Under the pieces are notes generated by a model. It was not told where the DNA came from. It ran no database searches and saw nothing but the letters and a program-made list of their open reading frames with translations. From Halomicrobium mukohataei DSM 12286 (GTDB lineage Archaea; Halobacteriota; Halobacteria; Halobacteriales; Haloarculaceae), in assembly GCF_000023965.1 (NCBI RefSeq), contig NC_013202.1:2400001-2432000 (forward strand): a DNA stretch of 32,000 nucleotides, read 5' to 3'. Shown piece by piece: positions 736-22,303 of the stretch (position 1 is the stretch's first letter; each line of letters opens with the position of its first letter). The position numbers and the translations under genes were made by a program.

Positions 736-736
736 C

Positions 737-1120: not shown

Positions 1121-1141
1121 ATTTGTATTTCTCGGTTTGAA

Positions 1142-1294
1142 TTACTCGCAGCAACCCTCTGATTCACGTCCTGACGAGGTGGATTGTGTTTCTTCGATAT
1201 CTGCCCTACAACAGGACCCTTCTTTCTGCCCATAGCGACTCACGAGACGATTCCAGAGTCGGTCGAGGATACTTTTTGCCATCTTCGTCATATC
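1142..1294 (-). CDS. Small Cys-rich hypothetical protein (about 50 aa), possible first gene of the arsR-permease operon
   Basis: Internal ATG of track ORF 1142..1375 gives MTKMAKSILDRLWNRLVSRYGQKEGSCCRADIEETQSTSSGRESEGCCE, with two vicinal CC pairs. A TATA-like TTTCATATAG lies about 20-27 nt upstream on the minus strand. The gene ends 21 nt before arsR. GC3 is only about 50%, like arsR. Confidence 0.3.
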   Translation of the reverse strand, partial: DMTKMAKSILDRLWNRLVSRYGQKEGSCCRADIEETQSTSSGRESEGCCE

Positions 1295-1521
1295 GTAGTT
1301 TCCCGATCTATATGAAAATTGTGGTGGCTCGGATCTTGGTCTCCTTGCCGAGAAGAGGATTCGTGTTGCCACCATTCAGAGCAGTAGAGTAGTCGAAAAC
1401 AGTGATGTACGCGAGTGGGATTTGATCATCTCCATGGATAGCGCCGCCACATTGATATAGCAGTATACAGTTTACGTGTCTACGAGCTGCCGCCGGGTCG
1501 CCGACAAAACAGTGTCGGGCG

Positions 1522-2559: not shown

Positions 2560-2999
2560 TTCTTGACGTACCCTCCCTCTCGCCCGCTGTATCTGATCTC
2601 GTCGCGCGCTTGGAGATCCTGTAGCGTCTCGTCCAGTTGCGCTTCGATGTCGTCGGTCACTGCCGCGACCAGCTCGTCCCACTCGTAGCTGTCGCCGTCG
2701 GCGAGGGTCGAGAGAACCCGGTCTTCCAGACGCTGACCCTGGGGGTCGGCGTCCGATTGTTCCCCTTCACCGCCTTCAGCTACTGTCGACGGTTCGATCG
2801 AAGACGAGTCGGCAGTAAAACCACGTCTCCCGGCCTGTACCATCGATCTGACGAACTCGCTGAGGCTCATGTCGAGTTCGTCGGCGTGTGCCTGCCACTC
2901 CTGTTTCTGATAGGTCGGAACGTAGGACTGAATCCTCGCCCGGGAGGTGTCGACGCCGCTGTCACGTGCCATATCGATCCCGTCACTTCCCAGCCACAT
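2556..2999 (-). CDS. Ribbon-helix-helix (CopG-like) small DNA-binding protein coupled to the integrase
   Basis: The segment SYVPTYQKQEWQAHADELDMSLSEFVRSMVQAGRRGF looks like an RHH beta-alpha-alpha unit and is followed by an acidic tail. Its stop overlaps the integrase ATG (ATGA). Start is ATG 2999 (leaderless relative to the TATA-like palindrome at 3016..3039) or ATG 2972. Confidence 0.5.
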   Translation of the reverse strand: MWLGSDGIDMARDSGVDTSRARIQSYVPTYQKQEWQAHADELDMSLSEFVRSMVQAGRRGFTADSSSIEPSTVAEGGEGEQSDADPQGQRLEDRVLSTLADGDSYEWDELVAAVTDDIEAQLDETLQDLQARDEIRYSGREGGYVKK

Positions 3000-3015
3000 C
3001 AATCTAACTCACAAT

Positions 3016-3039
3016 CACAGATAAGGTCATTTATCTGTG
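3016..3039. promoter_or_regulatory. Perfect 9-bp inverted repeat CACAGATAA-N6-TTATCTGTG overlapping the TATA-like sequence of the RHH-integrase operon
   Basis: Read directly. It sits in an AT-rich stretch 17-40 nt upstream of ATG 2999. The geometry fits an autoregulatory operator for the RHH protein. Confidence 0.35.
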
Positions 3040-3533
3040 GAAGTGCTGTCCTATAGCAGCCGCCAACTGATATCTTATTTGTGAATCTGTGCTCAGATAG
3101 CACTAAAGATTATATCCACAAATAAGTATTGTTCTAACAGCAGCAACACAACTCGCCGACAGCGCCAATCGATCTGGTCGGCAGCGGCCGCTCGCTGTGG
3201 ACGATGCCGACTGTCGCCGTGTCGGAACACCGCGACTGTGGGTACGCTCTGCGACGCAGGCGCTCTTGCACGACTCGCCGCATCGGACGAGACTCTGGCA
3301 CGGAGCCCATCGCGTACGACTTCGAGAGATCTCTGTGCTCGAACGAGCGACGATCGGATGAAAAGATCCTATCGGACGGCTGCCGGTCGTGGCGACACTC
3401 GATAGCCGGTACGTCACACGATCGACTGTCACCGTGGTTAGCTATTTCCGGCCCTGTGGCCTCCAGTCGTTTACAGAGTCACAGCCGACGGCGGCAATCC
3501 ATGAGGGACCGGTTCGATTCGACGCCGCCACCA

Positions 3534-3611
3534 TACTGCCGGCTGTCCGTCTGTACAGACCGTTGCGACCCCGTGGTCACGACTCTCTCGAAACGGTGAC
3601 AGCCGGCAGTA
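3534..3611. mobile_element. Family-A 78-bp palindromic MITE-like element, copy A1 (diverged)
   Basis: TACTGCCGGCTGT...ACAGCCGGCAGTA termini with an inner hairpin. Flanks are CCA / TCA. The right flank TCA is the TGA stop of the Nudix-like gene on the minus strand. Confidence 0.75.
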
Positions 3612-4109
3612 TCAGTCCAGGAATACGTCCGTCCCCGGAATCACGTCGGCATCTGCGGGCAGTTCGTCGAACCACTCGACCGCGTGGACCGGTTCGCCTG
3701 CCGGTTCCACGGCAGTGAGATCGTACGCTCCCGACATGGGGACGCCGCCGAAGGTGACGAATCCCCGCGTTGCGGTCCGTTCGCCGCCGTCCGTTTCGAC
3801 GGTGACCTGCCAGACGCCTTCGATCGTCGCCCGAACGTGATCGACGATCGCAGTCGTGAACGCCTCGTCCGGTGTCACGCTTTCGACGGGGATCTTCCAC
3901 GAGCAGGTGTCCGTTTGCTGTCGGAGGAGGAGCTCGCCCGCTGGGTTCGTGATGCCCACGCAAGCGAGATCTGGGAGGTCTCTCATCCGGTCGACGACTG
4001 CCCGGTCGACGACGTCTCGCTGCTCGTGATACGGCACTGGATCGTCCGCAGAGAGGCGCTCGTAGTCGACGATCGGTTCGATCTCCGGAGATGGGGTGTC
4101 TGTCGTCAT
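3612..4109 (-). CDS. Hypothetical protein, Nudix-fold-like with a degenerate Nudix box
   Basis: 165 aa, acidic. The segment WKIPVESVTPDEAFTTAIVDHVRATIEGV aligns loosely to GX5EX7REUXEEXGU, but the catalytic Glu residues are not conserved. It is bracketed by elements A1 and A2. Confidence 0.5.
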   Translation of the reverse strand: MTTDTPSPEIEPIVDYERLSADDPVPYHEQRDVVDRAVVDRMRDLPDLACVGITNPAGELLLRQQTDTCSWKIPVESVTPDEAFTTAIVDHVRATIEGVWQVTVETDGGERTATRGFVTFGGVPMSGAYDLTAVEPAGEPVHAVEWFDELPADADVIPGTDVFLD

Positions 4110-4196
4110 GGTGGGTGGGTTGTGGCGTGGCTCGACCGAAGCGAGCGTTCCCGGCGGACGTTCGAGCGAGGCCCCGCGAAATCAGTGTTCGACTGA

Positions 4197-4274
4197 TACT
4201 GCCGGCTGTAAGTCTGTACAGAATTTCGCGACCACGAGGTCGCGAATATCTTGAAACAGTTACAGCCGGCAGTA
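4197..4274. mobile_element. Family-A element, copy A2
   Basis: TACTGCCGGCTGTAAGTCTGTACAGAATTTCGCGACCACGAGGTCGCGAATATCTTGAAACAGTTACAGCCGGCAGTA. Perfect TGA direct repeats flank it at 4194..4196 and 4275..4277. Confidence 0.85.
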
Positions 4275-4835
4275 TGACAAGCGGCGGACTAATGAATGTA
4301 CCGGCAGTTCGGAAGGCGGATCCGTGCCGGATATCCTCCCGTCGATCGGATAGGCCGGCACAGATCCGCCAACTGCACCTCGGCCTTTCACCCCCAGGGC
4401 TTTCGGTGCTGTCAGTTGCTTCGGCCAATCTCCGCACCTTCGGACAGTCGATCGTCGCCACAGCCCGGCGCTTGGCGACGGATCTCGACGCCACTACCGA
4501 CGACGGTCGGTGCGGACGAGCCTCTCGCTGGTCTCTCGACGGCTCGATCCGTCCTCGTCGGCTGCCGTCCGGCAGCGGATCGCGAGTGTGACTCTAGGGC
4601 TGGCGTCTTCGATCGTTTCTCGTCTGTGGTCGCCATATATGATCAAGTTCTTTCATTTCTGCCCATCAGAAGTGGCCGCAGTGAGACTGATAAATTGCAT
4701 AGCGCTATACAGAAGTGAGCGTGCGAACGACAGTGAACGCTACGTTTCGCACGGATCGGTGTCGCCCTGGACCGGATCGATCGCACGACGATGTTCGACC
4801 GTGAGAACGGCGACGAGCGTCCGTACCAGAGGTGG

Positions 4836-4919
4836 GGTCAGTACAGTAGCGAGTCAAGAGGCCAGTACAGTAGCGAGTCGAGAGGCCAGTACAGTAGCGA
4901 GTCGAGAGGCCAGTACAGA
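4836..4919. repeat. 24-bp tandem repeat, about 3.5 units (GGCCAGTACAGTAGCGAGTCGAGA)
   Basis: Units at 4836, 4860 and 4884, plus a partial unit at 4908. Units 2 and 3 are identical and unit 1 has 2 mismatches. The period of 24 is divisible by 3. Confidence 0.9.
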
Positions 4920-5032
4920 ATATCGCCGACGCTCGTAGACGGCGAGGATCATCCCGGTGGTGCCGAACACTCTGCTCGCGTTCGAGGCGCACGCTTCGCC
5001 GTCGGCGTCGTCACAGCCCCCGACCCGCCTCA

Positions 5033-5109
5033 TACTGCCGGCTGTACGTCTGTGGAGAGTTTCGCGACCCCGTGTCGCGAATACGTTGAAACAGTGATAG
5101 CTGGCAGTA
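5033..5109. mobile_element. Family-A element, copy A3 (77 bp)
   Basis: TACTGCCGGCTGTACGTCTGTGGAGAGTTTCGCGACCCCGTGTCGCGAATACGTTGAAACAGTGATAGCTGGCAGTA. Flanks are TCA / TCG. Confidence 0.8.
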
Positions 5110-5165
5110 TCGGGAGAGAGGGTCCCAGCGATGCGGGACACGATAGCGCGTGTCCGTCGGGGTGA

Positions 5166-5243
5166 TACCGCCGGCTGTACGTCTGTATAGAATTTCGCGA
5201 CCCCGTGGTCGCGAATATCTTGTAACAGTTACAGCCGGCAGTA
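5166..5243. mobile_element. Family-A element, copy A4
   Basis: About 6 mismatches to A2 over 78 bp by hand alignment. Flanks are TGA / CGA. Confidence 0.85.
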
Positions 5244-5309
5244 CGAGAAGCGTGGTCCCGACGGCATCGCCGAAACGACGGATCGAGACGAGAATCCGGA
5301 ATTACGTCG

Positions 5310-7193
5310 TCACTCTTCGCTCTCTTCTTGCGTGCGCGTCGTCTGTGACGGTCCGCCGGAGAAGACGAACTCGTGTTCGGCTTCCGTCTCGAAGCGGTCG
5401 AGGATGTCCCCGAGCGGTCGAGCGTACCGTTTCAGCTGTTCGGCGCGCGAGGATACTTCGTTGAGTTCGGCGGCCTGTTCCTCCGCGGCACCGGCGACGG
5501 TCTCGGACTCGGACATCATCTGCTCGCTGGTGTCTGCGGCCTCCTGCAGCTGGGTCGCGACGGTGCGGAACTGGGTGAGCGAGTCGCCGAGGTCGACTGC
5601 TTGCTGCTCCGCTTCGAGGGCTTCGAGCGTCTCGACCAGTTCGTCGAGATCCTCGGAGATCGTCTGTAGCTGGTCTTTCTGCTCGTAGGCGTCGTCGGAG
5701 ATCTTCTGGATGGACTCGGCGACCTGTTCGGAGGCGTCACGGACAGACTCGGCACTTTGCAGCACCACGTCACCGGATTCCGCGACCTCTTCGGAGAAGC
5801 TCTTGAGCTGGCCGGTCGTCTTCTCCAACTCCTCGATCATGGCGTTGAACTCGCTCGCGATCGTGTCCATCGCTTCGTTCTCGCCGTCCTGCTCCATTCG
5901 CGTGGTCATGTCCCCGCCTGCGGTCTTCTCCATGGCGACGGAGAACTCGGTGGCTTTCTCCTGGAGGTAGTTGCTCATCTCCATTGCTTCCGCGCGCGAG
6001 ACCTCGGCCTCTTTGCGTGCGCGCTCGGCTTCGTCGATCTGCTCTCTGAGCGCGTCGCGCATGTCGGCGAAGCCGTCGTACAGCCGACCGATGTTGTCGA
6101 TCCGTGACGTGTCCAGTTCGACGTCGAGATTGCCCTCCCGCATCTCTTCGGTCTTCCGGGTGAGCGTATCGATCGACGACGAGGTGCTCCAGCCGAGGGC
6201 CGCACCGATACCGCCGATGAAGACGACCAGACCGGCCGTCGCGATCAGGCCGTACAGCTGCACGTCCTCGACGAAGCCAAACACCGTCGAGGACGGTGCG
6301 TGGGTCAGGACGACCCAGTCAGTCCCAGAGACCGGCGCGTAGCCGACTGTGTACTCCTCGTTCAGTCCGAGGTCGGCGTTCGGTGCCATCGTCGTCTTGA
6401 CGCTGGCACTCTCCTGTGTGCCCCGCAGGGCGTTCGCGTCGTCGACCGTCTGCTGGACGGGGTACGTCGACAGCGTCATCCCCTCTCGGTCGCTGTTGCT
6501 GGCGTAGGCCTGGTCGACGACGACCGTGCGGTGGCTGTCGACGACCTGTGTGAATCGCGCGGACTCGTCTTCGGCCGGACTGATCGAGTCGGCGAGTTCG
6601 TCGAGCCGGTACTCGACGACCAGGATGCGGTTCTGGGAGGCCGGCACCGGGCTGGCGAACCCGATGGTCGATTCGCTGTCCTGGCTGTCGCGGTAGGCGT
6701 CGGAGACGAGTACCCGACTGGTGTCGCTGAGCTCCGTCTCGGACGTCCACTGGAGGTTCCCGGACAACGCCGACGAGTCCGCACGGAGGCTCGTACTGGC
6801 GACGACGGACGATCCCGACGGCGTCGTCTCCAGCAGGTGGACGTTCTTGGCGTCGGCCGACAGCCGCGACAGCTCGTTTTGGAGAGCGAGTTCGAGATCT
6901 GCCTCGTCGTCACCCCACTGGTCCTGATTGGAGATGAGCTTCGTCGACAGCTTGTTCTGCGTGACCCACTGCTCGACGATGTCACTCTGCTGGACGGCCG
7001 TGTTCTGGAACTGTCCTTCGACGTTGTCCTGTGTCTGGGTCCGGACCTCTTCGGTCGCCGCGAACCCGATGATGCCGACCGACAGCCCCATCACCAGCAG
7101 GACGAGCCCGAACTTCAGTGCGAAGCTCCGCCTGAGGAAGTTGGGCGTGATCTTCTGGAGAATACCTTCGGAAGACGACTCTGTGTCGCTCAT
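5310..7193 (-). CDS. Membrane-bound Htr/MCP-like transducer with two TM helices, a large extracellular domain, HAMP modules and a shortened signalling domain
   Basis: 627 aa. TM1 is FALKFGLVLLVMGLSVGIIGFAA. An extracytoplasmic region of about 275 aa follows, then TM2 LYGLIATAGLVVFIGGIGAALGW. HAMP-like segments and methylation-helix-like heptads (SIQKISDDAYEQKDQL, AEEQAAELNEVS) are present. The QTNxLALNAxIEAAR tip motif is absent. Confidence 0.8.
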   Translation of the reverse strand: MSDTESSSEGILQKITPNFLRRSFALKFGLVLLVMGLSVGIIGFAATEEVRTQTQDNVEGQFQNTAVQQSDIVEQWVTQNKLSTKLISNQDQWGDDEADLELALQNELSRLSADAKNVHLLETTPSGSSVVASTSLRADSSALSGNLQWTSETELSDTSRVLVSDAYRDSQDSESTIGFASPVPASQNRILVVEYRLDELADSISPAEDESARFTQVVDSHRTVVVDQAYASNSDREGMTLSTYPVQQTVDDANALRGTQESASVKTTMAPNADLGLNEEYTVGYAPVSGTDWVVLTHAPSSTVFGFVEDVQLYGLIATAGLVVFIGGIGAALGWSTSSSIDTLTRKTEEMREGNLDVELDTSRIDNIGRLYDGFADMRDALREQIDEAERARKEAEVSRAEAMEMSNYLQEKATEFSVAMEKTAGGDMTTRMEQDGENEAMDTIASEFNAMIEELEKTTGQLKSFSEEVAESGDVVLQSAESVRDASEQVAESIQKISDDAYEQKDQLQTISEDLDELVETLEALEAEQQAVDLGDSLTQFRTVATQLQEAADTSEQMMSESETVAGAAEEQAAELNEVSSRAEQLKRYARPLGDILDRFETEAEHEFVFSGGPSQTTRTQEESEE

Positions 7194-11314: not shown

Positions 11315-12523
11315 TTATCCCCGTTCCAGGTCGTAGAGGCGGCGAAACGCCGCCGGTGGAAAGCGCAGTTCCACGCGGCTGGGCGGTCGCCCCTTCCCGC
11401 TTTCGAGGCCGGACTGGACGCGTTCGACGATCCCGCCTTCGGCCATCTCGTAGAGGTACCGCTTGACCGTTCCCGGTGAGAGGTCGACAGTCGCTTTCGC
11501 GGCGATCGCCTCCGTGGTCGCGGTGACGGACTCTCGGTCGGTCGAATCGAGTTCGACGACTTCTCGCAGGACGCGCTGTTTGTTGTCTGGCAGCGCGAGC
11601 ACCCTCGCCAGCGACACCGAGGGGCGTGGGATCTGCTCGATTGCGGCCTCGACGTCGTCCTGGCCGACGCGCGTCCCCTCTCGTTGACTCGCGTCGTCGG
11701 CCGCGATAAACAGCGCTGCCAGCGCGTCGTGTGCGTTGCCGTCCGCCCACTCGGCGATCGTGCGGGCCTGTTCGTGGCTCAGTGCCTGGGGAGCGAGTCC
11801 GTCCGAGGCGCGCGTCATCAACACGTCGACGAGCATCTGTCGACGGTACGGTTCGACCGGGATCGTCGTCGCCGTGTACTCGGTCAACAGCGTCTCTTCG
11901 GGGTCGTCTCGTCCGATCGCCAGCCAGCTCACGTTGCTGGGCAGTCCCGCGAAGAGGTCGATCAGCGCCTCGGCGTCGGTGCTGCCCTGTTCGCCGACGT
12001 GGTCGACGGCGATCACGACGCCGATGCTCGCGGCACCGAGCATCTCGTGGAGCCGACGGCGAAGCTCCGACGTGCTGATCCCGTGTTCCGGGACTCGGTC
12101 GTCGACGAGTCCGTCGAGCACGCGGTGGTAGAACGCGAACCGACTCGTCGTCTCACGCAGATCGACGTAGACGAACTCCGGAGAGGGCGGCGCTGCCGCG
12201 CGGGTACTCGTGTGAATGACCGACCGCTGTTCGGTCGAGAGCCGGCCGAGCCGCCCGAACAGCGCCGTCACGATCGCCGACTTCCCGGAGCCAAACGGGC
12301 CCGACACGTAGGCGTTGGGCGGTAAGCGGCCGTCGAACACCGGATCGAGGTGATCGAGCAGTCGCTCGAAGACCGGACCCCGGTCCGACGGGTCGTCGAT
12401 GTGTGCAACCGGGGACAGCGATTCGTAGTCCTGGATCAGTCGGGGGCCACCACCCCGGCGCTGCCGTCGTTTTATCCTCTCATCGATGTTCATGATCCGC
12501 TCTCTACGGGTTGACAACGGCAT
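11315..12523 (-). CDS. Divergent Orc1/Cdc6-family AAA+ protein with a C-terminal winged helix
   Basis: Walker A is GPFGSGKS. The Walker-B-like strand VVIAVDHV has His where Glu is expected. The C-terminus LSPGTVKRYLYEMAEGGIVERV is wHTH-like. The alternative start is ATG 12493 (MNIDERIK). Confidence 0.75.
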   Translation of the reverse strand: MPLSTRRERIMNIDERIKRRQRRGGGPRLIQDYESLSPVAHIDDPSDRGPVFERLLDHLDPVFDGRLPPNAYVSGPFGSGKSAIVTALFGRLGRLSTEQRSVIHTSTRAAAPPSPEFVYVDLRETTSRFAFYHRVLDGLVDDRVPEHGISTSELRRRLHEMLGAASIGVVIAVDHVGEQGSTDAEALIDLFAGLPSNVSWLAIGRDDPEETLLTEYTATTIPVEPYRRQMLVDVLMTRASDGLAPQALSHEQARTIAEWADGNAHDALAALFIAADDASQREGTRVGQDDVEAAIEQIPRPSVSLARVLALPDNKQRVLREVVELDSTDRESVTATTEAIAAKATVDLSPGTVKRYLYEMAEGGIVERVQSGLESGKGRPPSRVELRFPPAAFRRLYDLERG

Positions 12524-12706: not shown

Positions 12707-13474
12707 TTACAGTGCGTGATACAGCCCGGCCGCGAGGAGCGCTCCGATGATCGGACCGACGATAGGCACCCAAGAATACGCCCAGTCCGACGAGCCCTTG
12801 TGTGGAAACGGGAGGACCGCGTGTGCGATACGCGGTCCGAAGTCGCGTGCAGGATTGATCGCATAGCCGGTCGGGCCACCCAGAGAGAGCCCGATTCCGA
12901 GCACGACCAGTGCGACCGGAAGCGCTGACAGCGCGCCGAGACCGAATCCGACCTCTTGACCGTCGATCGTGATCGTTCGGAGGAACTCACCGGAAGCGCC
13001 GTCCAAGAATCCGGCGGAGTTCAGATACAACACCCCGAAGACCAGCACGAACGTACCGATGACCTCGGTCAGCATGTTTGCCCGATAGTTTCGGATTTCG
13101 GGACTCGTCGAGAAGATAGCGAGCTTCACGTCTTCGTCTTCCGTCGCGGCAAAGTGATCCTTGTACGCCAGCCAGACCACCACACCACCCAGGAACGCCC
13201 CGAGCGTTTGAGCGGCGATGTAGATCGGGACCTGTGCCCAGTCGAACAATCCGGCCGCAGCCAGTCCGATCGTCACGGCGGGATTGATGTGACCGCCGCT
13301 GACCTGACTGATCGTGAACACGCCCATGAACACACCGATAGCCCATCCCCACGTGATGACGATCCAACCGCTTTCGTGCCCTTTCGTCTCGTTGAGGACG
13401 ACGTTAGCGACGACACCGCCACCGAAGATGATGAGGATCGCAGTACCGATGGCTTCCGCGATGTACGGATTCAT
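12707..13474 (-). CDS. glpF: Aquaglyceroporin / glycerol uptake facilitator (MIP family)
   Basis: 255 aa with two NPA boxes (HINPAVTIG, AINPARDFG). It starts 3 nt after the glpK stop. Confidence 0.9.
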   Translation of the reverse strand: MNPYIAEAIGTAILIIFGGGVVANVVLNETKGHESGWIVITWGWAIGVFMGVFTISQVSGGHINPAVTIGLAAAGLFDWAQVPIYIAAQTLGAFLGGVVVWLAYKDHFAATEDEDVKLAIFSTSPEIRNYRANMLTEVIGTFVLVFGVLYLNSAGFLDGASGEFLRTITIDGQEVGFGLGALSALPVALVVLGIGLSLGGPTGYAINPARDFGPRIAHAVLPFPHKGSSDWAYSWVPIVGPIIGALLAAGLYHAL

Positions 13475-13477
13475 CGG

Positions 13478-15010
13478 TTACTCTTCATGTGCCCAGTCTC
13501 GGGACCGCTCGACGGCGTCGTCCCAGCGTCCGTACATCTTGTCCGCCTGCTCCGGTGCCATCTCGGGCTGGAAGTTGCGATCGACCTGCCAGTTGTCCCG
13601 CAGCTCGTCGATCGTGTCCCAGTAGCCGACGGCGAGGCCGGCGGCGTAGGCCGAGCCGAGCGCGGTCGTCTCGTCGACTTCCGGACGGGAGATCTCCGTC
13701 TGGATGATGTCGGACTGGAGCTGACAGAGGAAGTTGTTCTTGACGGCCCCACCGTCGACGCGCAGCGTCGTCGTCTCGACGCCGGAGTCGGCTTCCATCG
13801 CTTCGGCGATGTCTCGGGTCTGGTACGCGATAGATTCGAGCGTCGCACGGACGATGTGCTCTTTCCGGGTCCCGCGGGTCATACCGACGATCGTCCCGCG
13901 TGCGCGTCCGTCCCAGTGTGGCGCGCCGAGCCCGGTGAAGGCCGGCACCATGTACACGCCGTCCGTCGACTCGACCGAGCGGGCCAGCTCTGCGGTCTGT
14001 GCGGCGTTCTTGATGAGGTCGACGTCTTCGAGCCACTCGATCGCCGCACCCGTGATGAAGATCGACCCCTCCAGTGCGTACTGGACCGGTTCGCCGGACA
14101 TCTGGAAGCCGATCGTGGTGAGGAGTCCGTGATCGGACTCGACGGCCTCTTCGCCGGTGTTCATGAGGTAGAACGAGCCCGTGCCGTAGGTGTTCTTCGC
14201 GTCGCCGGCATCGAAGCAGGTTTGACCGAACAGGGCGGCCTGCTGATCGCCCAGGGCACCGGCGACGGGGACTTCGGCACCGAGGAAGCCGTCGGGGTCG
14301 GTGGTTCCGTACGTCGCCTCGTCGGAGGACGGGCGCACCTCGGGCAGCATCGATTCGGGGATGTCGAACTCTTCGAGGAGTTCCGCGTCCCACGACAGCC
14401 CCTCGATGTCGTAGAGCATCGTCCGAGAGGCGTTGGTCACGTCGGTGATGTGGTTGCCCGTGAGGTTGTAGATCAGCCACGAGTCGATCGTCCCCATCAG
14501 GAGTTCCCCGTCGCGGGCACGCTCACGGAGGTCACGCGTGCGGGCACTCTCCAGCTTGAGGGGTTCGGCGTTGTCCAGGATCCACTCGGTCTTTGTCGCC
14601 GAGAAGTAGGCGTCGGCCTCCAGCCCGGTCTTCTCGCGGATCATCTCGATCTTGCCGGCTTCTTCCAGCTCCTCGACGCGGTCGGTCGTCCGTCGGTCCT
14701 GCCACACCAGCGCGTTGTGTATCGGCCGCCCGGTCTCTCTGTCCCACACGATCGTGGTCTCTCGCTGGTTCGTGATCCCGATCGCCTCGAGCTGGGTGGC
14801 ATCGAGGTCGGCGGCGTCGAGGCCAGCGGTGACGACGGCCTTCGTGTTCTCCCAGATCTCGGTCGGATCGTGTTCGACCCAACCGGGTTTCGGATAGATC
14901 TGTTCGTGCTGTTCGTACGAGTTGGCGACGACGTTGCCGCTGTGGTCGAACACCATGAAGCGGGTGCCCGTCGTCCCCTGATCGATCGCACCGACGTATG
15001 TGTCTGGCAT
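13478..15010 (-). CDS. glpK: Glycerol kinase (FGGY family)
   Basis: 510 aa. YVGAIDQGTTGTRFMVFD...GWVEHDP...ITNQRETT...GDQQAALFGQ are canonical GlpK motifs. Confidence 0.95.
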   Translation of the reverse strand: MPDTYVGAIDQGTTGTRFMVFDHSGNVVANSYEQHEQIYPKPGWVEHDPTEIWENTKAVVTAGLDAADLDATQLEAIGITNQRETTIVWDRETGRPIHNALVWQDRRTTDRVEELEEAGKIEMIREKTGLEADAYFSATKTEWILDNAEPLKLESARTRDLRERARDGELLMGTIDSWLIYNLTGNHITDVTNASRTMLYDIEGLSWDAELLEEFDIPESMLPEVRPSSDEATYGTTDPDGFLGAEVPVAGALGDQQAALFGQTCFDAGDAKNTYGTGSFYLMNTGEEAVESDHGLLTTIGFQMSGEPVQYALEGSIFITGAAIEWLEDVDLIKNAAQTAELARSVESTDGVYMVPAFTGLGAPHWDGRARGTIVGMTRGTRKEHIVRATLESIAYQTRDIAEAMEADSGVETTTLRVDGGAVKNNFLCQLQSDIIQTEISRPEVDETTALGSAYAAGLAVGYWDTIDELRDNWQVDRNFQPEMAPEQADKMYGRWDDAVERSRDWAHEE

Positions 15011-15135: not shown

Positions 15136-17688
15136 CTACTGGTACGAGTCGAGCGTCGCTGCGATCTGCTCGTCGATCGATTCCAGCGTCTCGGCCGTCG
15201 AGTCTGTGGTATCCAGCCGTTCGACGCCCTCCTCGATAATCGTCCGAACCGTGTCGAACGGGCCGATCTGCGCCCCACGGGTCCCGATCGTGTCGGTCGT
15301 TTCCATCAGCTGGTCCAGCGCCGTCGCGTAGTGGGTGTTCTCCTCGAACCAGCCCGCCGCCCGTAGTTCCGGAATCGCCCCTTCGTGAACCGGGAAGTAG
15401 CCGGTCTCGCGGTGCCAGCGCTGCTGTTGTGCGGGCTGGGTGAGCCAGGTCAGGAACTCGCTGACCGCGTCGTGGACGGCCGTCGAGTGGTCGTCCCCGA
15501 CCCACAGCGACGCCCCGCCGACCAGCACGCCCGTCCTGTCGTCGAGCACCGGGAATCGTCCCGTCTCGACCGGGAACGCCGCGCCCGACTCGATCTCCGT
15601 CAGCGAGGAGGTCGATCCGATGAGCATCGCGGCGTCTCCGTCGTGGAACGCGGTTCTGGCAGCGCCTCGTGCCTCGATGCCGGGGTCGTAGTGATACCCC
15701 GATTCGGACATGTCGCGCCACCACTCGAACAGCGACTGGCCGAACGAACCGCTGAGGTTCGCCGTCGTCGGCCGTCCGGCGCGTCCGTTGTCGTTGTCGA
15801 CCAACGGCTCGTCCGCCTCCGCGAACCACTGTTCGACGAACCACGAGTAGTTCGCGAACGTGATGCCGTACTCGGAGACGCCAGCGTCGACGATGCGCTC
15901 GGAGGCGTCACGAACCGCCGAGAGCGTCTCCGGCGGCCGGTCGGGATCGAGCCCCGCGCGCTCGAACGCGTCGCGGTTGTACACCAGGACCGGATTCGAG
16001 GCGTTGAACGGGAGCGAGTGCAACGTCCCGTCGAACCGGTAGTAGTTCGCCACGGGATCGAGGAGCGAGTCGACGTGTTCCTGAGAGAGCAGCCGTTCGA
16101 CCGGCACGAACTGGCCGCTGTCGCGCGCTCGCGTGGTCCCGATCTCGAAGATCTGGGCGATCGCCGGCGGCGATCCGTTCTCGGCCGCCGTCAGTGCCGC
16201 GTCGAGGGTCCCGCGATAGCTCCCCTTCGACGACAGCGAGATCACGACGCCGTCTGTCTGGGCCTCGAACTCGCGGGCCAGTTCCTCCAGCAACAGCCCC
16301 TTCTCGCCGCCCATCGCGTGCCAGAACTCCACGACGGTCGCGTCTTCGTCCGCGGTCTCGTCGGCGAGTTCGTAGTCGTCGAACGTCGATTCGAGCGTCC
16401 CAGCCCGCTCGGACAGCGTCGAGACGCGCGTCGACACCTCGGCCAGCTCGGTCGTCTGTGTCCGGGCTGCCGTCGCCGCGACCTCGGCGTCGGAGGCCGT
16501 GTCGTCACTGATGTCGCCGACGGCGTTGACCATCGACACGATCTCCTGGGTGGACTCCGCCTGACTGTCGGTGGCCTCGTCGATCTCCTGGATGCTCGTG
16601 TCGATCTCCTCGACCTGTCCGACGACGCGTTCGAGACCGTCGGTCACCGATTCGACGGTGTCGTGTGTCCGGTCGACGCTCTCGCTCGTCTCGTGGACGG
16701 TCTCGACGGTCGCTTCGGCCTGTTCGTGGACTCGGTCGATGGAGTCCTCGATCTCCGCCGTCGCTCGCTTCGTCTCGCTGGCGAGCTCTTTGACCTCGCT
16801 GGCCACGACGCCAAAGCCCTCGCCGTCCTCGCCCACGCGGGCGGCCTCGATGTTCGCGTTCAGCGCGAGAACGTTGGTCTGGTCGGCAACGTCGGTGATG
16901 AACTCGACGATGTCTTCGATCTCGGTCAGGAGGTCGTTGAGCCGCTCTATCTGCTCGACGGTTTCCGAGGAGCGCGCCGCGAGGCGTTCGAGTTCGGTCC
17001 TCGCCTCCGTCGCCGAGGACCGGGCCTGATCGCCCTGGGCCGCGGCGTCGCCGGTCGCCGTCGCGACCTCGTTGGCCGAGGCCGCGATCTCCTCGATCGT
17101 CGCCGAGAGGGCCTCCATCTCGTCGGCGATGTCGTTGATCCGCTCGTTCTGTCGGCGGGAGCCCGACGAGATGCCGTCGACCGCGTCGCTCACCTCGCGG
17201 CTCGCACCTTTCACGGAGTCGAGACGCTCGTCGACCTGCTCGGTCGACGACGCCACCTGCCCGCCGAACACGGAGACCGTCTCGACGGTGTCGCGCCACT
17301 CGGCGAGGAGATCCCGGTACGCACTGTACAGCTCCGAGACCGCCGCTACGTCGGCGCCTCCGGGCGTCTCCGTCAGGTCTCCCTCGGCGTTGGCCGCGAC
17401 CACCGAACTCAGGTCCTCGATCGCGCGCTCCAGCGTCTCCGCTCGTTCGCGTTCCGCTGTCAGGGTCTCCCGGACCCGTTCGCGGTCCTCGATGGCTTCG
17501 TCACGCTCCGCGCGTGCCTGGGAGAGTTGCCGTTCGAGCTCCTGTCTCGTTCGTGCCTGCTCGTCCTCTCCGACCGCCTCGCCGCCGTCCGAGCGCGTCT
17601 CCGCTTCGGTCGAACTCGTCGATCGCCAGTCAAACATCGGTAACGCGCCTCCCGATCGTGCTGAACATACGATACGTGCCAGATCCAT
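15136..17688 (-). CDS. Soluble MCP/Htr signalling protein fused to a C-terminal UgpB-like (family-1 solute-binding, sn-glycerol-3-phosphate type) domain
   Basis: 850 aa. The N-terminal half is coiled coil plus an MCP domain with an intact tip ([38 protein letters not shown]). The C-terminal 401 aa (nt 15139..16341) align by eye to E. coli UgpB: [57 protein letters not shown] and [11 protein letters not shown] see no hydrophobic helix or signal peptide. The alternative start ATG 17637 (MFDWRS) is preceded by GGGAGG. Confidence 0.85.
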
Positions 17689-17944
17689 ACCGTACGTATA
17701 TAATAGTTATTGGTGGATGTATAAGGTAGATAAAGATGCTGCATCGGTGTCTAAAGCGGTGATACAGCCCGATTTTCAGGATAGCTGTCCCAGTCGGCAG
17801 CGCCGAGCGCCAGTGCGACAGTCGGCGTCGGCGAGCATCGTCCTCGTGACGCGCCGAAATCGTGTTAACGATCACTAGTTTTACTGTCGGTGTCCGTTCG
17901 TCGGTGAAGTAAAGTGGGTGGCGACCTAACGACTCCGAGTATAG

Positions 17945-19663
17945 ATGGCATCGACACCACGAATCGTCGTCGTCGGAGGTGGCTCGACCGGCGCGGGCGT
18001 CGCGCGAGACCTCGCGATGCGCGGGGCCGACGTGACCCTCGTCGAGCAGGGGAACCTCACACACGGCACGACGGGGCGCATGCACGGACTGCTCCACAGC
18101 GGCGGCCGGTACGCGGTCTCCGACCAGAAGAGCGCACGCGAGTGTATCGAAGAGAATCGCGTGTTACGCGACATCGCGAGCCACTGCGTCGAGATGACCG
18201 GTGGCATGTTCGTCAAGCGTCCGGAAGACTCCGAATCGTACTTCGAAGAGAAACTACAGGGGTGTGCCGACTGCGACATCCCCGCGGAGGTGATCTCGGG
18301 CGAACGCGCACGCGAACGCGAGCCCCACCTCGCGACGGACGTCGACAAGGCGATCTCCGTCCCCGACGGCGCGGTCGATCCGTTCCGGCTCGTCGTCGCC
18401 AACGCCGCCAGCGCACAGGAACACGGTGCCCGGATCGAGACCCACTCGAAGGTCACCGATCTGCTCGTCGAGAGCGGCGAGATCGTCGGCGTCGAGGTCG
18501 AACACGGGGCCAAGTCCGGCGATCGCGTCCACGGCGTCCAGTCGGGTCGAGAGACGATCCGGGCCGACCACGTCGTCAACGCGACCGGCGCGTGGGCCGG
18601 CCGGATCGGCGACATGGCCGACCTCGACGTGGCCGTACGGCCCTCGAAGGGCGTCATGACGATCATGAACGTCCGGCAGGTCGACACCGTCATCAACCGC
18701 TGTCGGCCCAAGGGCGACGCGGACATCATCGTTCCTCACGAGACGACGGCGATACTGGGGACGACCGACGAGGAGGTCGAGGACCCGGAGGACTACCCCG
18801 AAGAGCAGTGGGAGGTCGACCAGATGATCGAGACGCTCTCGGAACTGGTGCCGATGCTCGCCGACGCGCGCTCGATCCGGTCGTTCTGGGGCGTGCGCCC
18901 GCTGTACGAACCGCCGGAAGTGGGCAGCGAAGATCCGACCGACATCACGCGGGACTACTTCCTGCTGGACCACGAGGAACGCGACGGCCTGCCGGGCATG
19001 ACGACCATCGTCGGCGGGAAGTTCACGACCTACCGGATGATGGGCGAGGAGATCGCCGACCACGTCGTCTCCAAGTTCGGGATGGACGCCGACTGCCGGA
19101 CCGCGGACGTGCCGCTGCCCGGTAGCGAGGAGTTTTCGGTGCTGCGAGACTACATGGACGAGTTCGGCCTGCGCTCGCCGATCGGCCGGCGCAGCGTCGA
19201 GCGACTGGGATCGCGGGCCGAGGAGGTGCTCGGCACCGGCGAGCCGAACCCGGTGCTGTGCAACTGCGAGGGCGTCACGCGCGCGGAAGTACGGGACGCG
19301 ATCTCCCAGGCCGGCGCGGACCTCAACGGGACCCGCATCCGGACCCGAGCGTCGATGGGCAACTGCCAGGGCGGCTTCTGCATCCATCGTCTGGCCGGCG
19401 AGCTCCACCCCGAGTTCGACGAGGCGACGGTTCGAGACTCCTGGGACGACCTGCTACAGGAACGGTGGAAGGGACAGCGCCACGCCCTCTGGGGGAACCA
19501 GCTCCAGCAGGCGATGATCAACTACGCGCTGCACGCGACGACGCAGAACCGCGACCACGACCCGGCGACCCAGCCCGTCGACTTCGCCGCCTTCGACAGC
19601 GGACCGGGCTCGGATCGTCGCCTGGGGTCGGACACCGTCGGGGAGGCCGCAGATGGCGATTGA
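17945..19663 (+). CDS. glpA: Anaerobic-type glycerol-3-phosphate dehydrogenase subunit A
   Basis: 572 aa. The FAD fold is [29 protein letters not shown]-terminal BFD-like 2Fe-2S segment reads [11 protein letters not shown]...CQGGFC. Confidence 0.9.
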
Positions 19664-20921
19664 TTCGGAGGTGCTGGTCGTCGGCGGCGGGCTCGCGGGC
19701 GTGACGAGCGCGGTCGCGGCCGCCCGCGCGGGTGCGGACGTGCGCCTGGTCTCCTACAAGCAGAGCTCGCTCCGGCAGGCCTCCGGGCTGATCGACGTGC
19801 TCGGCTACGTCGGCGACGAGGTCGTCGTCGATCCGTACGACGCGATTCCGGAGCTCCACGAAGACCACCCCTACCGTCTCGTGGGCGTCGAGACGGTTCG
19901 GGACGCGATGGCGCTGTTCGACGAGACCGTCGACGGCTACCACGGCGACCACACCGAGACCAACGCACTGCTCCCGACCCACGGCGGGACGGTCAAGCCG
20001 ACCGCGCGCTACCCCGCCGGAGCCGCCGAGGGCGTCGCCAGCGACGACCGGGACACGCTCCTTGTCGGCTTCGAGCGGCTGGTCGACTTCGACGCACCGC
20101 TCGCCGCGAGTCACGTCGAGGCCGCGGGCGCGCCGTTCTCGGCCGACGGCGTGACGATCACGTTCCCGGGAGATCTCCAGGCCGACGCCAAGGTCACTCG
20201 GTACGCGAAGCTGCTCGACCAGAACAGTCCCGTCGCAGTCGACGGCCAGAAGGTCGACACCCGGACCGCGCTCGCCGAACGGATCGCCCCCCACCTCGAC
20301 GGCCACGAACGCGTCGGCTTCCCGGCGGTGCTGGGCGACGATCACACCGACGCGGTGCGGGCGACGCTGGCCGAGGAGCTCGGGGTGGCCGTCTTCGAAG
20401 TCCCGATGGGGCCGCCCTCGCTGCCGGGACTGCGCCTCGAAGACCGTCTCTTCGAGGCGCTCGACCGGTCCGGCACGCGCTACGAGGTCGGCAACCCCGT
20501 CGTCGACTACGAGGGCGAGGATCGGATCGAACGCGTGGTCGTCGAACGGAACGGCTCTCGGGTCCCCTACAGCGCCGACCAGTACGTCCTCGCGACGGGC
20601 GGGCTGGTCAGCAAGGGCGTCGAGAGCGACCGCGAGGGCGTTCGAGAGCCGATCTTCGACTGTCACGTCCCACATCCGAAAGACCGGTACGACTGGTTCG
20701 AAGACGGCGTGTTCGACGACCACGCGTTCGCGCGCTTCGGCGTCGACGTTGGGAGCGACTTGCGGCCACGTGCGGCCGGCGGAAGCGTGGAGTTCGAGAA
20801 CCTCAGAGCGGCTGGGGCGACGATCGGCGGCTACGACTTCGCGGCCGAGAAGTCCGGCAGCGGCGTCTCGATCGCGACCGGCTACGCGGCCGGGAGAGCG
20901 GCGACGGAGGATCTGACATGA
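19653..20921 (+). CDS. glpB: Glycerol-3-phosphate dehydrogenase subunit B
   Basis: 422 aa. It has the dinucleotide fold [15 protein letters not shown]. It overlaps the glpA stop and its own stop overlaps the glpC start. Confidence 0.85.
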
Positions 20922-22303
20922 GTGATTCAGCTGACACACCGACGGAGGAGTCGTTCGAACCGACGGAACCGAACACGGGCGAGGAGTTCGAGCCGGTCCA
21001 GGTGTTCCCCGACGAGGAGACGATGGACCTGCGGCCCGGCGCGGACTCCTGTACGAAGTGTAGTACCTGCGATACGAACTGTCCGGTCGCGGAAGTCGAC
21101 GACGAGTTCCCGGGGCCGAAGTTCCAGGGACCGGAGCAGTGGCGACTCAAGCAGACCGACGACGGCGACGAGTTCGCCATCGACGACTCCATCATGGACT
21201 GCTCGAACTGCATGCGCTGTGACGACGCCTGTCCCTCGGGTGTCCCGCTCAGCCAGATGCACAACGAGGCCCGCGGCGAGTACGTCGACGAGCAGATGAG
21301 CAAGCTCTCGACGGAGTACTGGCGCAACCGGATCCTCGCCAACTACCGCACGTCCGCGTGGCTGGCGAGCAAGGTCCCCCGGATCGCCAACGTCGCGATG
21401 AACTTCGGGCCGGCTCGCTGGGTCATGGAGAAGACCCTCGGTGTCACGAGCGAGCGGGAGTTCCCCGCCTTCGCGACGGAGACGTTCTCCGAGTGGTGGG
21501 CCGCCCAGGGCGGCGCTGCCGGTTCCCGCGAGCGCGCTCGCGACGCCCGCGAACGCCGCGGCGAACCCCTCGACGCCGACAAGAAGGTCGCGTACTTCCA
21601 CGGCTGTTACTCCGAGTACAACACCCCCGAGGTCGCGCGGGCCCTCGTTCGCGTGTACGAGCACTTCGGCTACGAGATCGTCGTGCCCGAGCAGGGCTGT
21701 TCGGGAACGCCGATGTTCGCAAACGGGATGCTCGACGACGCCCGCCGCCACGCCGAGGTCAACGTCTCTTCGATGGCCGATCTGGTCGAGGAGGGGTACG
21801 ACGCCATCGCCTCCTGTACGTCGTGCTCGCTGGCGCTGCGACAGGAGTATCCCGAGCTGTTCGACATCGACGGCATCGAAGACGTGGCCGAGAACACCTT
21901 CGAGTCCATCGAGTACCTCCGGATCCACGAAGACGTGCGCGGTGCGCTCCAGGACGCCGAGATCGGGGACGAACTCGCCGAAGAGTTCGCCTACCACGCG
22001 CCGTGTCACGCCCGCAACCAGGGGCTCGAACGGCAGGCCGTCGAGCTGTTCCGCGATCTCGACGGCGTCGCAGTCGAGGACGTGGGCGACTCCTGTTCGG
22101 GCATCTCGGGCACCTACGGCTGGAAAGACGAGAAGTACGAGAAGTCGATGGCCATCGGTGAAGAGATGTTCGACCACATGGAGGACGTCGAGAGCACCAC
22201 CGGTATGACCGAGTGTCCCACCTGCTCGATGCAGATGGAACACGGTACTGGCTACGACATCCGACACCCGATCGAGCTGGTCGCGGCGGCGCTGGTCGAG
22301 TGA
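20918..22303 (+). CDS. glpC: Glycerol-3-phosphate dehydrogenase subunit C (Fe-S / CCG-domain protein)
   Basis: 461 aa. Two ferredoxin-type clusters are present (CTKCSTCDTNCP, CSNCMRCDDACP), plus two Cys-rich CCG-like repeats. The stop TGA 22301..22303 doubles as the left target duplication of element B1. Confidence 0.9.
   Translation: MSDSADTPTEESFEPTEPNTGEEFEPVQVFPDEETMDLRPGADSCTKCSTCDTNCPVAEVDDEFPGPKFQGPEQWRLKQTDDGDEFAIDDSIMDCSNCMRCDDACPSGVPLSQMHNEARGEYVDEQMSKLSTEYWRNRILANYRTSAWLASKVPRIANVAMNFGPARWVMEKTLGVTSEREFPAFATETFSEWWAAQGGAAGSRERARDARERRGEPLDADKKVAYFHGCYSEYNTPEVARALVRVYEHFGYEIVVPEQGCSGTPMFANGMLDDARRHAEVNVSSMADLVEEGYDAIASCTSCSLALRQEYPELFDIDGIEDVAENTFESIEYLRIHEDVRGALQDAEIGDELAEEFAYHAPCHARNQGLERQAVELFRDLDGVAVEDVGDSCSGISGTYGWKDEKYEKSMAIGEEMFDHMEDVESTTGMTECPTCSMQMEHGTGYDIRHPIELVAAALVE

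Follow-up and report, generated by a model that had tools for sequence, protein, structure and literature searches.

What does a chemoreceptor sense when its only recognisable sensor is a transporter-type solute-binding protein (SBP) domain and its gene lies among genes for glycerol catabolism? This question is raised by a fusion gene in the 32,000-nucleotide stretch of Halomicrobium mukohataei DSM 12286 DNA analysed here (the window), which encodes a methyl-accepting chemotaxis protein (MCP) joined to an SBP domain.

Gene structure and start codon

The open reading frame of the fusion gene contains no stop and encodes 850 aa in a single reading frame. The gene and its upstream region comprise the following features.

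15136..17688, minus strand: open reading frame of the MCP-SBP fusion protein as first listed, 850 codons plus stop
15136..17637, minus strand: probable true coding sequence, with an M18 start and 833 aa, from the N-termini of homologues
17638..17944, no strand assigned: divergent intergenic region common to the fusion gene and glpA, presumed to hold promoters

The homologues begin with MxxWxPF, and the corresponding residues of the fusion protein are MFDW at M18. Because of these N-termini, M18 (ATG at 17637), rather than M1, is probably the real start. A TATA-like ATTATATA is located upstream of the fusion gene at about 17697-17704, which is probably too near for the ATG at 17688 to be a likely start. 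A scan of the DNA for sigma-70 promoters and terminators was uninformative, the host being an archaeon. The earlier note had considered that the true start might leave the MCP and SBP parts as separate genes; they form one polypeptide, and the M18 start keeps both. A gene-fusion artefact or a frameshift was rejected, as the continuous MCP-SBP architecture recurs in about 100 independent clusters.

Signalling domain and topology

The N-terminal half of the protein is organised as follows, from the N-terminus onwards.

17569..17637, minus strand: disordered acidic N-terminus (aa 18-40; pLDDT <50)
17581-17592, minus strand: SDGG motif (aa 33-36) in the N-terminus
17386..17568, minus strand: long N-terminal helix (aa 41-101; AlphaFold2 helix 24-84 in M18 numbering, pLDDT 81-88)
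17347..17385, minus strand: conserved G-D-L loop (aa 102-114), homologous to the HAMP position of membrane-anchored relatives
16378..17346, minus strand: MCP cytoplasmic helical hairpin (aa 115-437), from Pfam, AlphaFold2 and the tip motif
17077..17106, minus strand: predicted methylation-site consensus (aa 195-204; regular-expression match)
16510-17022, minus strand: Pfam MCPsignal (PF00015) match (aa 223-393)
16780-16869, minus strand: kinase-control tip (aa 274-303)

The MCPsignal match spans profile positions 5-171 of 172 (E 5e-39, 134.3 bits against a cut-off of 34.6), which agrees with the complete MCP signalling domain first described for this protein. AlphaFold2 places the two helices of the hairpin at residues 98-267 and 269-420 (M18 numbering). 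The hairpin-tip motif LALNAxIEAARAGExGxGFAVVAxEV is present, with tip residues that are invariant in A2, and the tip that contacts CheA and CheW is canonical and intact. The methylation-site pattern, [ASTG][ASTG]xx[EQ][EQ]xx[ASTG][ASTG], has one strict match. The fusion protein therefore has, as judged from its sequence, the MCPsignal match, tip motif and methylation consensus of methyl-accepting chemotaxis proteins. In addition, transmembrane Htrs in the same genera have a collinear hairpin that is 40-44% identical over about 400 aa. Given this collinearity and the canonical tip, the protein would be expected to form a complex with CheW and CheA and to control the kinase. A tblastn search of the window with the MCP part matched only the fusion gene itself and thus revealed no second MCP, and no che genes were found in the 32-kb window.

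Upstream of the hairpin, 51 of the 102 family members have an xDGG motif among their first 90 residues. G86 of the G-D-L loop is invariant, and D87 and L88 nearly so, in A2. This region aligns with the Pfam HAMP match of a related protein (P0056; 26.6 bits, just over the cut-off); the window protein itself gives no Pfam match to HAMP (PF00672) at E<=1.

The Kyte-Doolittle 19-residue maximum of the fusion protein is 0.85, where a transmembrane helix would reach about 1.6. The N-terminus harbors neither a hydrophobic h-region nor a twin-arginine motif, and no member of the family has a transmembrane segment between its MCP and SBP parts. The lack of a signal peptide and of a transmembrane helix, as claimed in the earlier note, is thus confirmed by these predictions, which identify the protein as a cytoplasmic (soluble) chemoreceptor. 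An exported SBP domain was rejected, given that there is no signal and no transmembrane segment and that the domain follows a cytoplasmic signalling hairpin. In the Halohasta-type subgroup, a hydrophobic hairpin is found at the N-terminus.

Structure of the solute-binding domain

The C-terminal half consists of a linker and a single domain.

16339..16377, minus strand: acidic non-conserved linker (aa 438-450), about 13 residues, predicted to be disordered (pLDDT <50)
15139..16338, minus strand: UgpB-clade solute-binding domain (aa 451-850) without a signal peptide, from Pfam/NCBIfam, profile and AlphaFold

An acidic linker had been noticed at first reading, and its extent is here refined to about 13 residues (aa 438-450). 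Most family members have a linker of about 10-15 aa, the outliers being two members with more than 40 Gly/Ser/Ala-rich residues.

Pfam detected SBP_bac_8 at aa 469-787 (E 3.5e-38, 132 bits) and SBP_bac_1 (E 1e-23, 85 bits) so that, together with MCPsignal, every Pfam family anticipated for this protein was matched. The best NCBIfam match is UgpB (NF008211; aa 445-833) with 211.2 bits, which does not reach the equivalog cut-off of 411 bits. A profile of the family matched E. coli UgpB over its full length (282 bits, E 6e-83), the next PDB group scoring about 114 bits. It aligns end to end with 4aq4, the start of the SBP domain lying opposite TTIPFWHSMEG, and the domain begins at the first β-strand of mature E. 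coli UgpB. The AlphaFold model (pLDDT 89.5, pTM 0.87) has a two-lobe fold with more than 1000 PDB matches to SBPs, and its TM-scores to 6x84, 9lff and 4aq4 are 0.92, 0.83 and 0.82, respectively. The alignment with 4aq4 and the TM-score of 0.92 bear out the proposal that the domain starts where mature UgpB starts and matches it throughout. Sequence profiles and the predicted model thus support the assignment of the SBP part to the UgpB clade, and the full-length match and two-lobe fold are those of a family-1 / cluster-D SBP.

Distribution and origin of the fusion

The MCP-SBP fusion was found in about 100 protein clusters (90% identity), in which every named member belongs to the Halobacteria. 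The full-length identity of the window protein with its best relatives is 63-66%, and that of its SBP domain 72%. The architecture itself is not new, contrary to what had been supposed at first. Besides these clusters, a 2022 survey of archaeal chemoreceptors tabulated SBP_bac_8 as a 'Cytoplasmic-C terminal' sensor in Haloarcula and Halorubrum (Table S5, PMC9680633), without proposing a ligand or function for it. The searchable literature yielded no functional study of the MCP-SBP fusion, of haloarchaeal glycerol taxis or of the synteny of the glp cluster, and no binding, expression or behavioural data on the family, which is listed in databases and has never been studied.

The fused SBP domains are monophyletic in a neighbor-joining tree and are sister to stand-alone Tat-lipoprotein SBPs. 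These nearest relatives have a Tat RR motif and a lipobox, and their genes belong to SBP-permease-permease-ATPase operons. With exported lipoproteins encoded in Ugp-like ABC operons as its nearest relatives, the sensor domain is shown by the comparison of sequences to be a recruited transporter SBP, derived from a Tat-exported Ugp-like lipoprotein that lost its signal peptide. In Salinigranum marinum, the fusion gene was lost through a transposase insertion.

Genomic context

Annotation of the neighbouring genes confirmed that the fusion gene lies between glpK-glpF and a divergent glpABC, as first described.

12707..13474, minus strand: MIP-family glycerol facilitator (glpF-like)
13478..15010, minus strand: glpK (glycerol kinase), 125 nt downstream of the fusion gene and on the same strand
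17945-19663, plus strand: glpA, anaerobic-type G3P dehydrogenase (glpABC span 17945..22303)
19653-20921, plus strand: glpB, anaerobic-type G3P dehydrogenase
20918-22303, plus strand: glpC, anaerobic-type G3P dehydrogenase

A TATA-like GATAAAG about 27 nt before the glpK ATG suggests that glpK has its own promoter, so that its co-transcription with the fusion gene is only a possibility. The ORFs of the 32-kb window that were scanned included no identifiable ABC permease or ATPase gene.

The synteny of glpCBA with MCP-SBP-glpK is common to the window and three other loci (L001, L081 from Haloarcula hispanica, and L086), and in Halohasta, Halonotius and A07HN63, too, glpK/glpABC are close to the fusion gene. 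The linkage is limited to two subclades, Haloarcula-type and Halohasta-type, with 7 of about 22 loci among the matches listed. About two thirds of the loci have the fusion gene away from glp genes, these frequencies being those of a sample (at least 14 fused haloarchaeal loci in the contig scan, plus many bacterial SBPs). Unrelated contexts were observed in Halorubrum, Halapricum, Halorhabdus, Haloferax larsenii and a second Haloarcula type; in Halapricum, the fusion gene adjoins glucan phosphorylase, GH77, TrmB and PGI. The phyletic survey suggested by the earlier note thus recovered a family, with the expected linkage to glp genes in two subclades and unrelated neighbours in the others.

Predicted ligand-binding pocket

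In UgpB, the phosphate is contacted by Tyr64, Ser143, Ser266 and Tyr342, the glycerol hydroxyls by Glu88, Gly303 and Arg393, and Trp191 is a clamp residue (PMC12718374). Both sn-glycerol-1-phosphate (G1P) and sn-glycerol-3-phosphate (G3P) are bound in the same pocket, and the first clamp Trp (W169 in E. coli, W188 in Phaeobacter) is important for their binding (PMC12718374). The predicted contacts of the fused domain are Y491, E515, S564, W616, S692, G725, Y764 and R815. Eight of the nine UgpB contacts are kept in 99-100 of 100 fused members, including the Tyr/Ser phosphate quartet (Y491, S564, S692, Y764) and the hydroxyl-binding trio (E515, G725, R815), and the second clamp Trp is present as W616. 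The first is replaced by N613 (of 100 members, 91 have Asn, 6 Thr and 3 Val), which leaves the two-tryptophan clamp incomplete. The conservation of UgpB ligand contacts, singled out early as a point to check, thus holds for all of them except the first clamp Trp.

No positions of the domain are better conserved than the ligand contacts, even between genera with otherwise only 45-65% identity. This would be hard to explain without ligand binding, and it weighs, together with the canonical CheA/CheW-contacting tip, against an SBP domain that binds no small molecule and serves in protein interaction, localisation or array scaffolding, or an MCP-like regulator with a non-CheA output. The flexible, non-conserved linker and the dispensability of the gene in Salinigranum marinum that follows from its loss there would fit such a role, which we consider very improbable.

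As one of the two clamp Trp is Asn, the pocket does not settle which ligand is bound. The same receptor might respond to another phosphorylated compound, such as G1P, a glycerophosphodiester from lipid turnover, DHAP or a small phospho-polyol, and would in that case signal the state of lipid or central-carbon metabolism rather than of glycerol catabolism specifically. The acceptance of both G1P and G3P in one UgpB pocket is consistent with this. The loss of the first clamp Trp also resembles UgpB from M. tuberculosis, which has Leu205 at this position and binds glycerophosphodiesters and not G3P. In addition, most members are unlinked to glp genes, the Halapricum gene lying among glucan and sugar-phosphate genes, and the presumed pocket-lining residues G493, Y614 and R674 were re-tuned after fusion, with Y614 and R674 specific to the fused family. 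However, the hydroxyl-binding acid at the Glu88 position is Glu in the fused members, whereas it is Asp in M. tuberculosis UgpB and in the stand-alone relatives. Moreover, Arg674, in the loop that narrows the cavity, is invariant in fused members and is K/R in UgpB from E. coli and Phaeobacter, both of which bind G3P, in contrast to Trp in the stand-alone relatives. With the gene wedged between glpK and glpABC in two subclades, we regard a different phosphorylated ligand as unlikely.

Unphosphorylated cytoplasmic glycerol could also be bound, in which case taxis would need entry through GlpF and not GlpK. The incomplete Trp clamp would allow for this. One bacterial protein from this SBP clade has its gene in an SBP-permease-permease-glpK-glpD operon, in which the ABC permease genes immediately precede glpK and the glpD-like gene. 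This arrangement fits glycerol import, and the operon also counts in favour of the main reading set out below. Glycerol SBPs of the CUT1 family exist in rhizobia. We nevertheless find this ligand improbable.

Proposed mechanism and significance

The sequence and the predicted structure make it plausible, with about an even chance, that the fusion protein senses a glycerol phosphate (G3P, possibly G1P) inside the cell and so drives metabolism-dependent glycerol taxis. The Asn at the first clamp position, the equivalog score that is not reached, the distance of most sampled loci from glp genes, the probable separate promoter of glpK and the lack of che genes in the window speak against this reading. 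The protein is a soluble haloarchaeal transducer (Htr/MCP). A short flexible linker joins its only recognisable sensor, a UgpB-type Venus-flytrap domain, to the C-terminal end of the hairpin, which places the sensor in the cytoplasm. We infer the ligand, the coupling mechanism, the control of CheA and the sign of the response as follows. Its ligand would most likely be a glycerol phosphate, namely the G3P produced by GlpK and possibly G1P too. Closure upon binding might alter the packing of the SBP domain on the membrane-distal end of the four-helix bundle, at the HAMP-equivalent region, and this change would modulate CheA via the conserved hairpin tip, with adaptation through methylation. The outcome would be an attraction to glycerol that depends on its uptake and phosphorylation.

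More tentatively, and a little short of an even chance, the family may represent dedicated intracellular-metabolite chemoreceptors, in which a domain captured from an exported Ugp-type lipoprotein, and attached in cis at the C-terminal end of the hairpin, reads the cytoplasmic glycerol-phosphate pool and brings about glycerol taxis in hypersaline brines. Such a family would be the first example of wholly intracellular SBP-to-MCP signalling, entering the bundle from the C-terminal helix, and would sense an intermediate directly, a mechanism distinct from redox/PMF energy taxis. Glycerol from Dunaliella is a principal carbon source in salterns. We know of no glycerol chemoreceptor in any archaeon, and to our knowledge coupling of taxis to metabolism other than by redox/PMF sensing is poorly documented. 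The fusion family provides a concrete candidate for a glycerol-taxis receptor: the domain is soluble and purifiable, the solved structures of UgpB allow its pocket to be predicted, fusion genes occur in the genetically tractable Haloarcula, and the glpK and glpA neighbours permit clean epistasis. If the proposal is true, a periplasmic-binding-protein fold has been re-used as a cytoplasmic input on the C-terminal arm of the hairpin, which would be of use for understanding how signals enter MCP bundles and for engineering metabolite-responsive receptors. Since UgpB-type pockets accept both enantiomers, one may also ask how a sensor of catabolism in an archaeon avoids being misled by the lipid precursor G1P.

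Comparison with known systems

UgpB of the UgpBAEC importer (4aq4; 9lff from Phaeobacter) shares the full-length fold of the SBP domain (TM 0.82-0.92, about 29-30% identity). The fusion protein differs from it by the absence of a signal peptide and of adjacent permeases, and by the Asn in place of the first clamp Trp. Export and association with the UgpA/E permeases and the UgpC ATPase, which characterise UgpB, are lacking in the fusion protein and are found in its stand-alone relatives. The closest of these Ugp-like SBPs, from Haloferax mucosum (L014), Halorubrum (L015/16) and Natronomonas (L017), are 46-49% identical and have in common with the fused family the clamp-position Asn and a FANxSWFxEQWFA motif. 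They differ by their Tat signal plus lipobox, their ABC operons, and Trp and H/V in place of Arg674 and Tyr614, respectively.

Among chemoreceptors, recognition of the ligand by a transporter-type SBP is reminiscent of BasB/BasT and CosB/CosT from H. salinarum and of MBP-Tar from E. coli. In those systems a separate exported SBP, lipid-anchored or periplasmic, docks on an extracellular receptor domain, whereas here the SBP is covalently fused, lacks an export signal and is located in the cytoplasm. Helicobacter pylori TlpD is likewise a cytoplasmic receptor with a sensory module after the signalling domain, but differs in its sensor fold and in its stimulus (redox, energy or oxidants). The C-terminal sensor of TlpD is a zinc-binding domain. 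Car (Htr11) from H. salinarum, which measures arginine inside the cell, is also a soluble haloarchaeal MCP that senses a nutrient after uptake, with the same type of Che pathway, and sets a precedent for the proposed reading; it has no SBP fold, in contrast to the complete ABC-transporter SBP located C-terminal to the hairpin in the fusion protein. Finally, glycerol energy taxis in E. coli, reportedly described by Zhulin et al. in 1997, is said to occur via Aer/Tsr and to need metabolism. Aer and Tsr sense a downstream change in redox or PMF, whereas the fusion protein would read a pathway intermediate directly.

Domain content of the fusion

The DNA of the window is high in GC and haloarchaeal in character. 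The ORF at 15136-17688 (-) gives an uninterrupted translation of 850 residues (numbering used below unless stated otherwise) that includes two complete Pfam domains.

aa 223-393: MCPsignal, complete signalling domain (E 5e-39)
aa 467-787: complete family-1 solute-binding domain (SBP_bac_8 and SBP_bac_1)

Because family homologues begin with MxxWxPF, which aligns with M18 (MFDW...), translation probably begins at ATG 17637, for a product of 833 aa. The hydropathy maximum of the protein, 0.85 in a Kyte-Doolittle scan with a 19-residue window, is far under transmembrane values, and the N-terminus lacks both a twin-arginine motif and a hydrophobic core. The gene is flanked as follows.

3' of the fusion gene, same strand: MIP/glpF and glpK
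5' of the fusion gene, divergent: glpA, glpB and glpC

The ORF, domain matches, topology scan and neighbors thus confirm what the earlier note had observed: a single gene combining MCP and family-1 binding domains, devoid of signal peptide and TM helix, located between glpK-glpF and a divergent glpABC.

Distribution of the family

Among some 5.8 billion clustered proteins searched, 101 clusters have both MCPsignal and SBP_bac_8 and are 45-66% identical to the window protein. All named fused members are Halobacteria, from Haloarcula, Halomicroarcula, Halapricum, Halorhabdus, Halohasta, Halorubrum, Halobaculum and Salinigranum. In an exhaustive phmmer search of 1.84 billion representatives, only about 8 clusters (50% identity) span both domains, below which scores fall steeply to single-domain matches; Natronocalculus and a Halorubraceae archaeon are added as named members. 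The majority of the family is soluble, and a Halohasta-type subgroup of about 920-940 aa carries a hydrophobic hairpin at the N-terminus followed by a HAMP domain. No member has a TM segment between MCP and SBP, and the binding domain is thus cytoplasmic throughout the family.

The architecture, for which the earlier note knew no characterised example, had already been tabulated. In Table S5 of a survey of archaeal chemoreceptors published in 2022, SBP_bac_8 (or SBP_bac_1) stands under 'Cytoplasmic-C terminal' for Haloarcula hispanica, Haloarcula marismortui, other Haloarcula and several Halorubrum, with no discussion of the ligand, origin or context of the domain (PMC9680633). Our literature search found no experimental or bioinformatic paper proposing a function for it. 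The fusion is thus a cytoplasmic chemoreceptor with an unusual sensor that had already been catalogued.

P0102 (467 aa) has the family N-terminus (MSKWNPFDS...TDGG) and the SBP domain alone, with no MCPsignal match; internal loss of the signalling hairpin or misassembly may explain it. In Salinigranum marinum (L087, 8001-11691) a DDE_3 transposase splits the gene inside the SBP domain, making it a pseudogene.

Predicted anatomy of the receptor

A full-length AlphaFold2 model, computed from 60 aligned family sequences and with a mean pLDDT of 79.6, comprises the following elements, counted from M18.

1-23: disordered acidic N-terminus
24-84: long helix, followed by a conserved short G-D-L loop
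98-267 and 269-420: two helices of the MCP hairpin
421-433: linker, low confidence
434-833: binding domain, confident fold (pLDDT >90)

The hairpin tip is canonical, and the methylation consensus has one strict match. The linker sequence is not conserved; it spans about 10-15 residues in most members and more than 40, rich in Gly/Ser/Ala, in two, which argues for a flexible tether and not a rigid helical connection. HAMP is detectable only in the membrane-anchored subgroup (P0056, 26.6 bits), with no match in the homologous segment of the window protein. Half of the family (51/102 members) harbors a (T/S/P/A)DGG motif at about residues 14-25 of an otherwise unconserved, disordered and acidic N-terminus. 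In the window copy it reads SDGG (aa 33-36, 17581-17592), and it may serve as a short linear motif for interactions.

The window encodes another transducer-like protein of 627 aa at 5310-7193 (-). It combines two TM segments and about 270 aa of extracellular domain with HAMP (aa 333-384) and a methylation-helix-like coiled coil. It has no MCP hairpin tip and no MCPsignal match, and tblastn detects no resemblance between it and the MCP part of the fusion. In Haloarcula hispanica (L081), an equivalent HAMP-only gene follows a Peripla_BP_6 gene.

Origin of the sensor domain

The C-terminal 390 residues match UgpB as top NCBIfam model at 211 bits, far under its equivalog cut-off of 411 bits. A binding-domain profile matches E. 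coli UgpB (4aq4) from end to end (282 bits, E 6e-83) and Phaeobacter UgpB (9lff) with 272 bits; the next PDB group, including M. tuberculosis UgpB and a U3G-binding protein, scores just about 114 bits. When the domain is modelled with AlphaFold2 (pLDDT 89.5, pTM 0.87), its best structural matches are UgpB proteins, at TM scores of 0.92 (6x84), 0.83 (9lff) and 0.82 (4aq4). The domain thus belongs to the UgpB clade, in line with the earlier note.

Among the matches listed, the nearest non-fused relatives are haloarchaeal (46-49% identity) and carry a Tat RR motif and a lipobox; the one operon examined, from Haloferax mucosum (L014), encodes two permeases and an ATPase. Next come SBPs of Halanaerobiales and other bacteria (38-42%). 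A neighbor-joining tree, calculated without bootstraps, groups the fused domains in one clade with the haloarchaeal lipoproteins as sister group. The simplest history would be that an exported Ugp-like SBP was captured once and its signal peptide lost.

Predicted ligand pocket

Phaeobacter UgpB structures from 2025 define nine ligand contacts: Tyr64, Ser143, Ser266 and Tyr342 to the phosphate, Glu88, Gly303 and Arg393 to the glycerol hydroxyls, and a Trp188/Trp191 clamp (PMC12718374). When 100 fused members are aligned, eight of these positions show 99-100% conservation (Y491, E515, S564, W616, S692, G725, Y764 and R815). At the Trp188 position (E. coli W169), the fused members have Asn (91), Thr (6) or Val (3), Asn being common to stand-alone haloarchaeal relatives. 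Eight otherwise invariant positions distinguish the fused family from these relatives. Three of them (G493, Y614, R674) are sequence neighbors of ligand contacts or belong to the loop by which the cavity of E. coli UgpB is narrowed.

The ligand is likely a phosphorylated glycerol-type compound, judging from these residues, with G3P as leading candidate, ahead of G1P or a small diester. A diester would suit the non-Trp residue at the Trp188 position, which is Leu in M. tuberculosis UgpB, a protein that binds glycerophosphodiesters and not G3P; however, the position of R674 is K/R in the G3P-binding E. coli and Phaeobacter proteins and Trp in stand-alone relatives.

Genomic context

The window shares its gene order, glpCBA <-> MCP-SBP-glpK-(facilitator), with the closest MAG (L001), with Haloarcula hispanica (L081) and with the closest metagenomic relative (L086). 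In Haloarcula hispanica, synteny with the window includes the genes for Orc, ROK, pyruvate kinase and PfkB farther downstream. In Halohasta, Halonotius and A07HN63 the fusion gene is a few kilobases from glpK/glpABC. The glp linkage noted earlier is thus real in two subclades only (about 7 of 22 sampled loci), whereas contexts elsewhere are unrelated, as in Halorubrum, Halorhabdus, Halobiforma, Haloferax larsenii and a second Haloarcula type (Haloarcula laminariae and Haloarcula rara). The Halapricum gene also has an unrelated context: in Halapricum desulfuricans (L083, 3031-14977) it is flanked by glucan phosphorylase, GH77 amylomaltase and TrmB to one side and by phosphoglucose isomerase (PGI) to the other, which hints at sugar-phosphate metabolism rather than glycerol, although the pocket residues are unchanged.

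The same SBP clade has a bacterial member (38% identity) encoded by the first gene of an Atribacterota MAG operon (L023, 1407-8715) ordered SBP-permease-permease-glpK-glpD(-like dehydrogenase), with a pyridine-nucleotide oxidoreductase also present. The arrangement suggests that glycerol or glycerol-phosphate compounds have an ABC route there and ties the SBP clade independently to glycerol metabolism. The glpK gene of the window has a TATA-like element about 27 nt 5' of its ATG, so that co-transcription with the receptor is not implied.

The gene after glpK encodes a MIP/GlpF channel in the window (12707-13474 (-)) and a DUF7973 membrane protein in L081 (14209-15300) and L086 (12306-13448), which looks like non-orthologous replacement of a putative glycerol facilitator. 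An Orc1/Cdc6-family AAA+ gene (11315-12523 (-)) adjoins the glp/receptor cluster and is also kept at L010 (7174-8340), L011 (1601-2764) and L081 (15363-16538); this neighbor is common to the window, Haloarcula hispanica, Halohasta and Halonotius, at 42-45% identity. Positions 1-6000 of the window, with a GC content of 0.60-0.61 vs 0.64-0.69 in the rest and a tyrosine recombinase (integrase) at 1522-2682 (-), probably represent an integrated mobile element or a provirus, at the margin of the syntenic block.

Proposed mechanism and known systems

From these observations we infer a mechanism in which glycerol would enter via the facilitator and be converted to G3P by GlpK. G3P would close the tethered Venus-flytrap domain, altering its packing on the membrane-distal end of the bundle and the HAMP-equivalent segment, where the C-terminal helix ends alongside. 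The change would travel to the hairpin tip and turn CheA activity down or up; methylation would reset the receptor and GlpABC would drain the signal. This glycerol-phosphate hypothesis is reasonable, if unproven.

Like the proposed receptor, Car of H. salinarum measures its ligand, arginine, inside the cell, and BasB/BasT and CosB/CosT likewise use transporter-type binding proteins. The fusion would unite Car-type intracellular sensing and a BasB/CosB-type binding protein in one cytoplasmic polypeptide.
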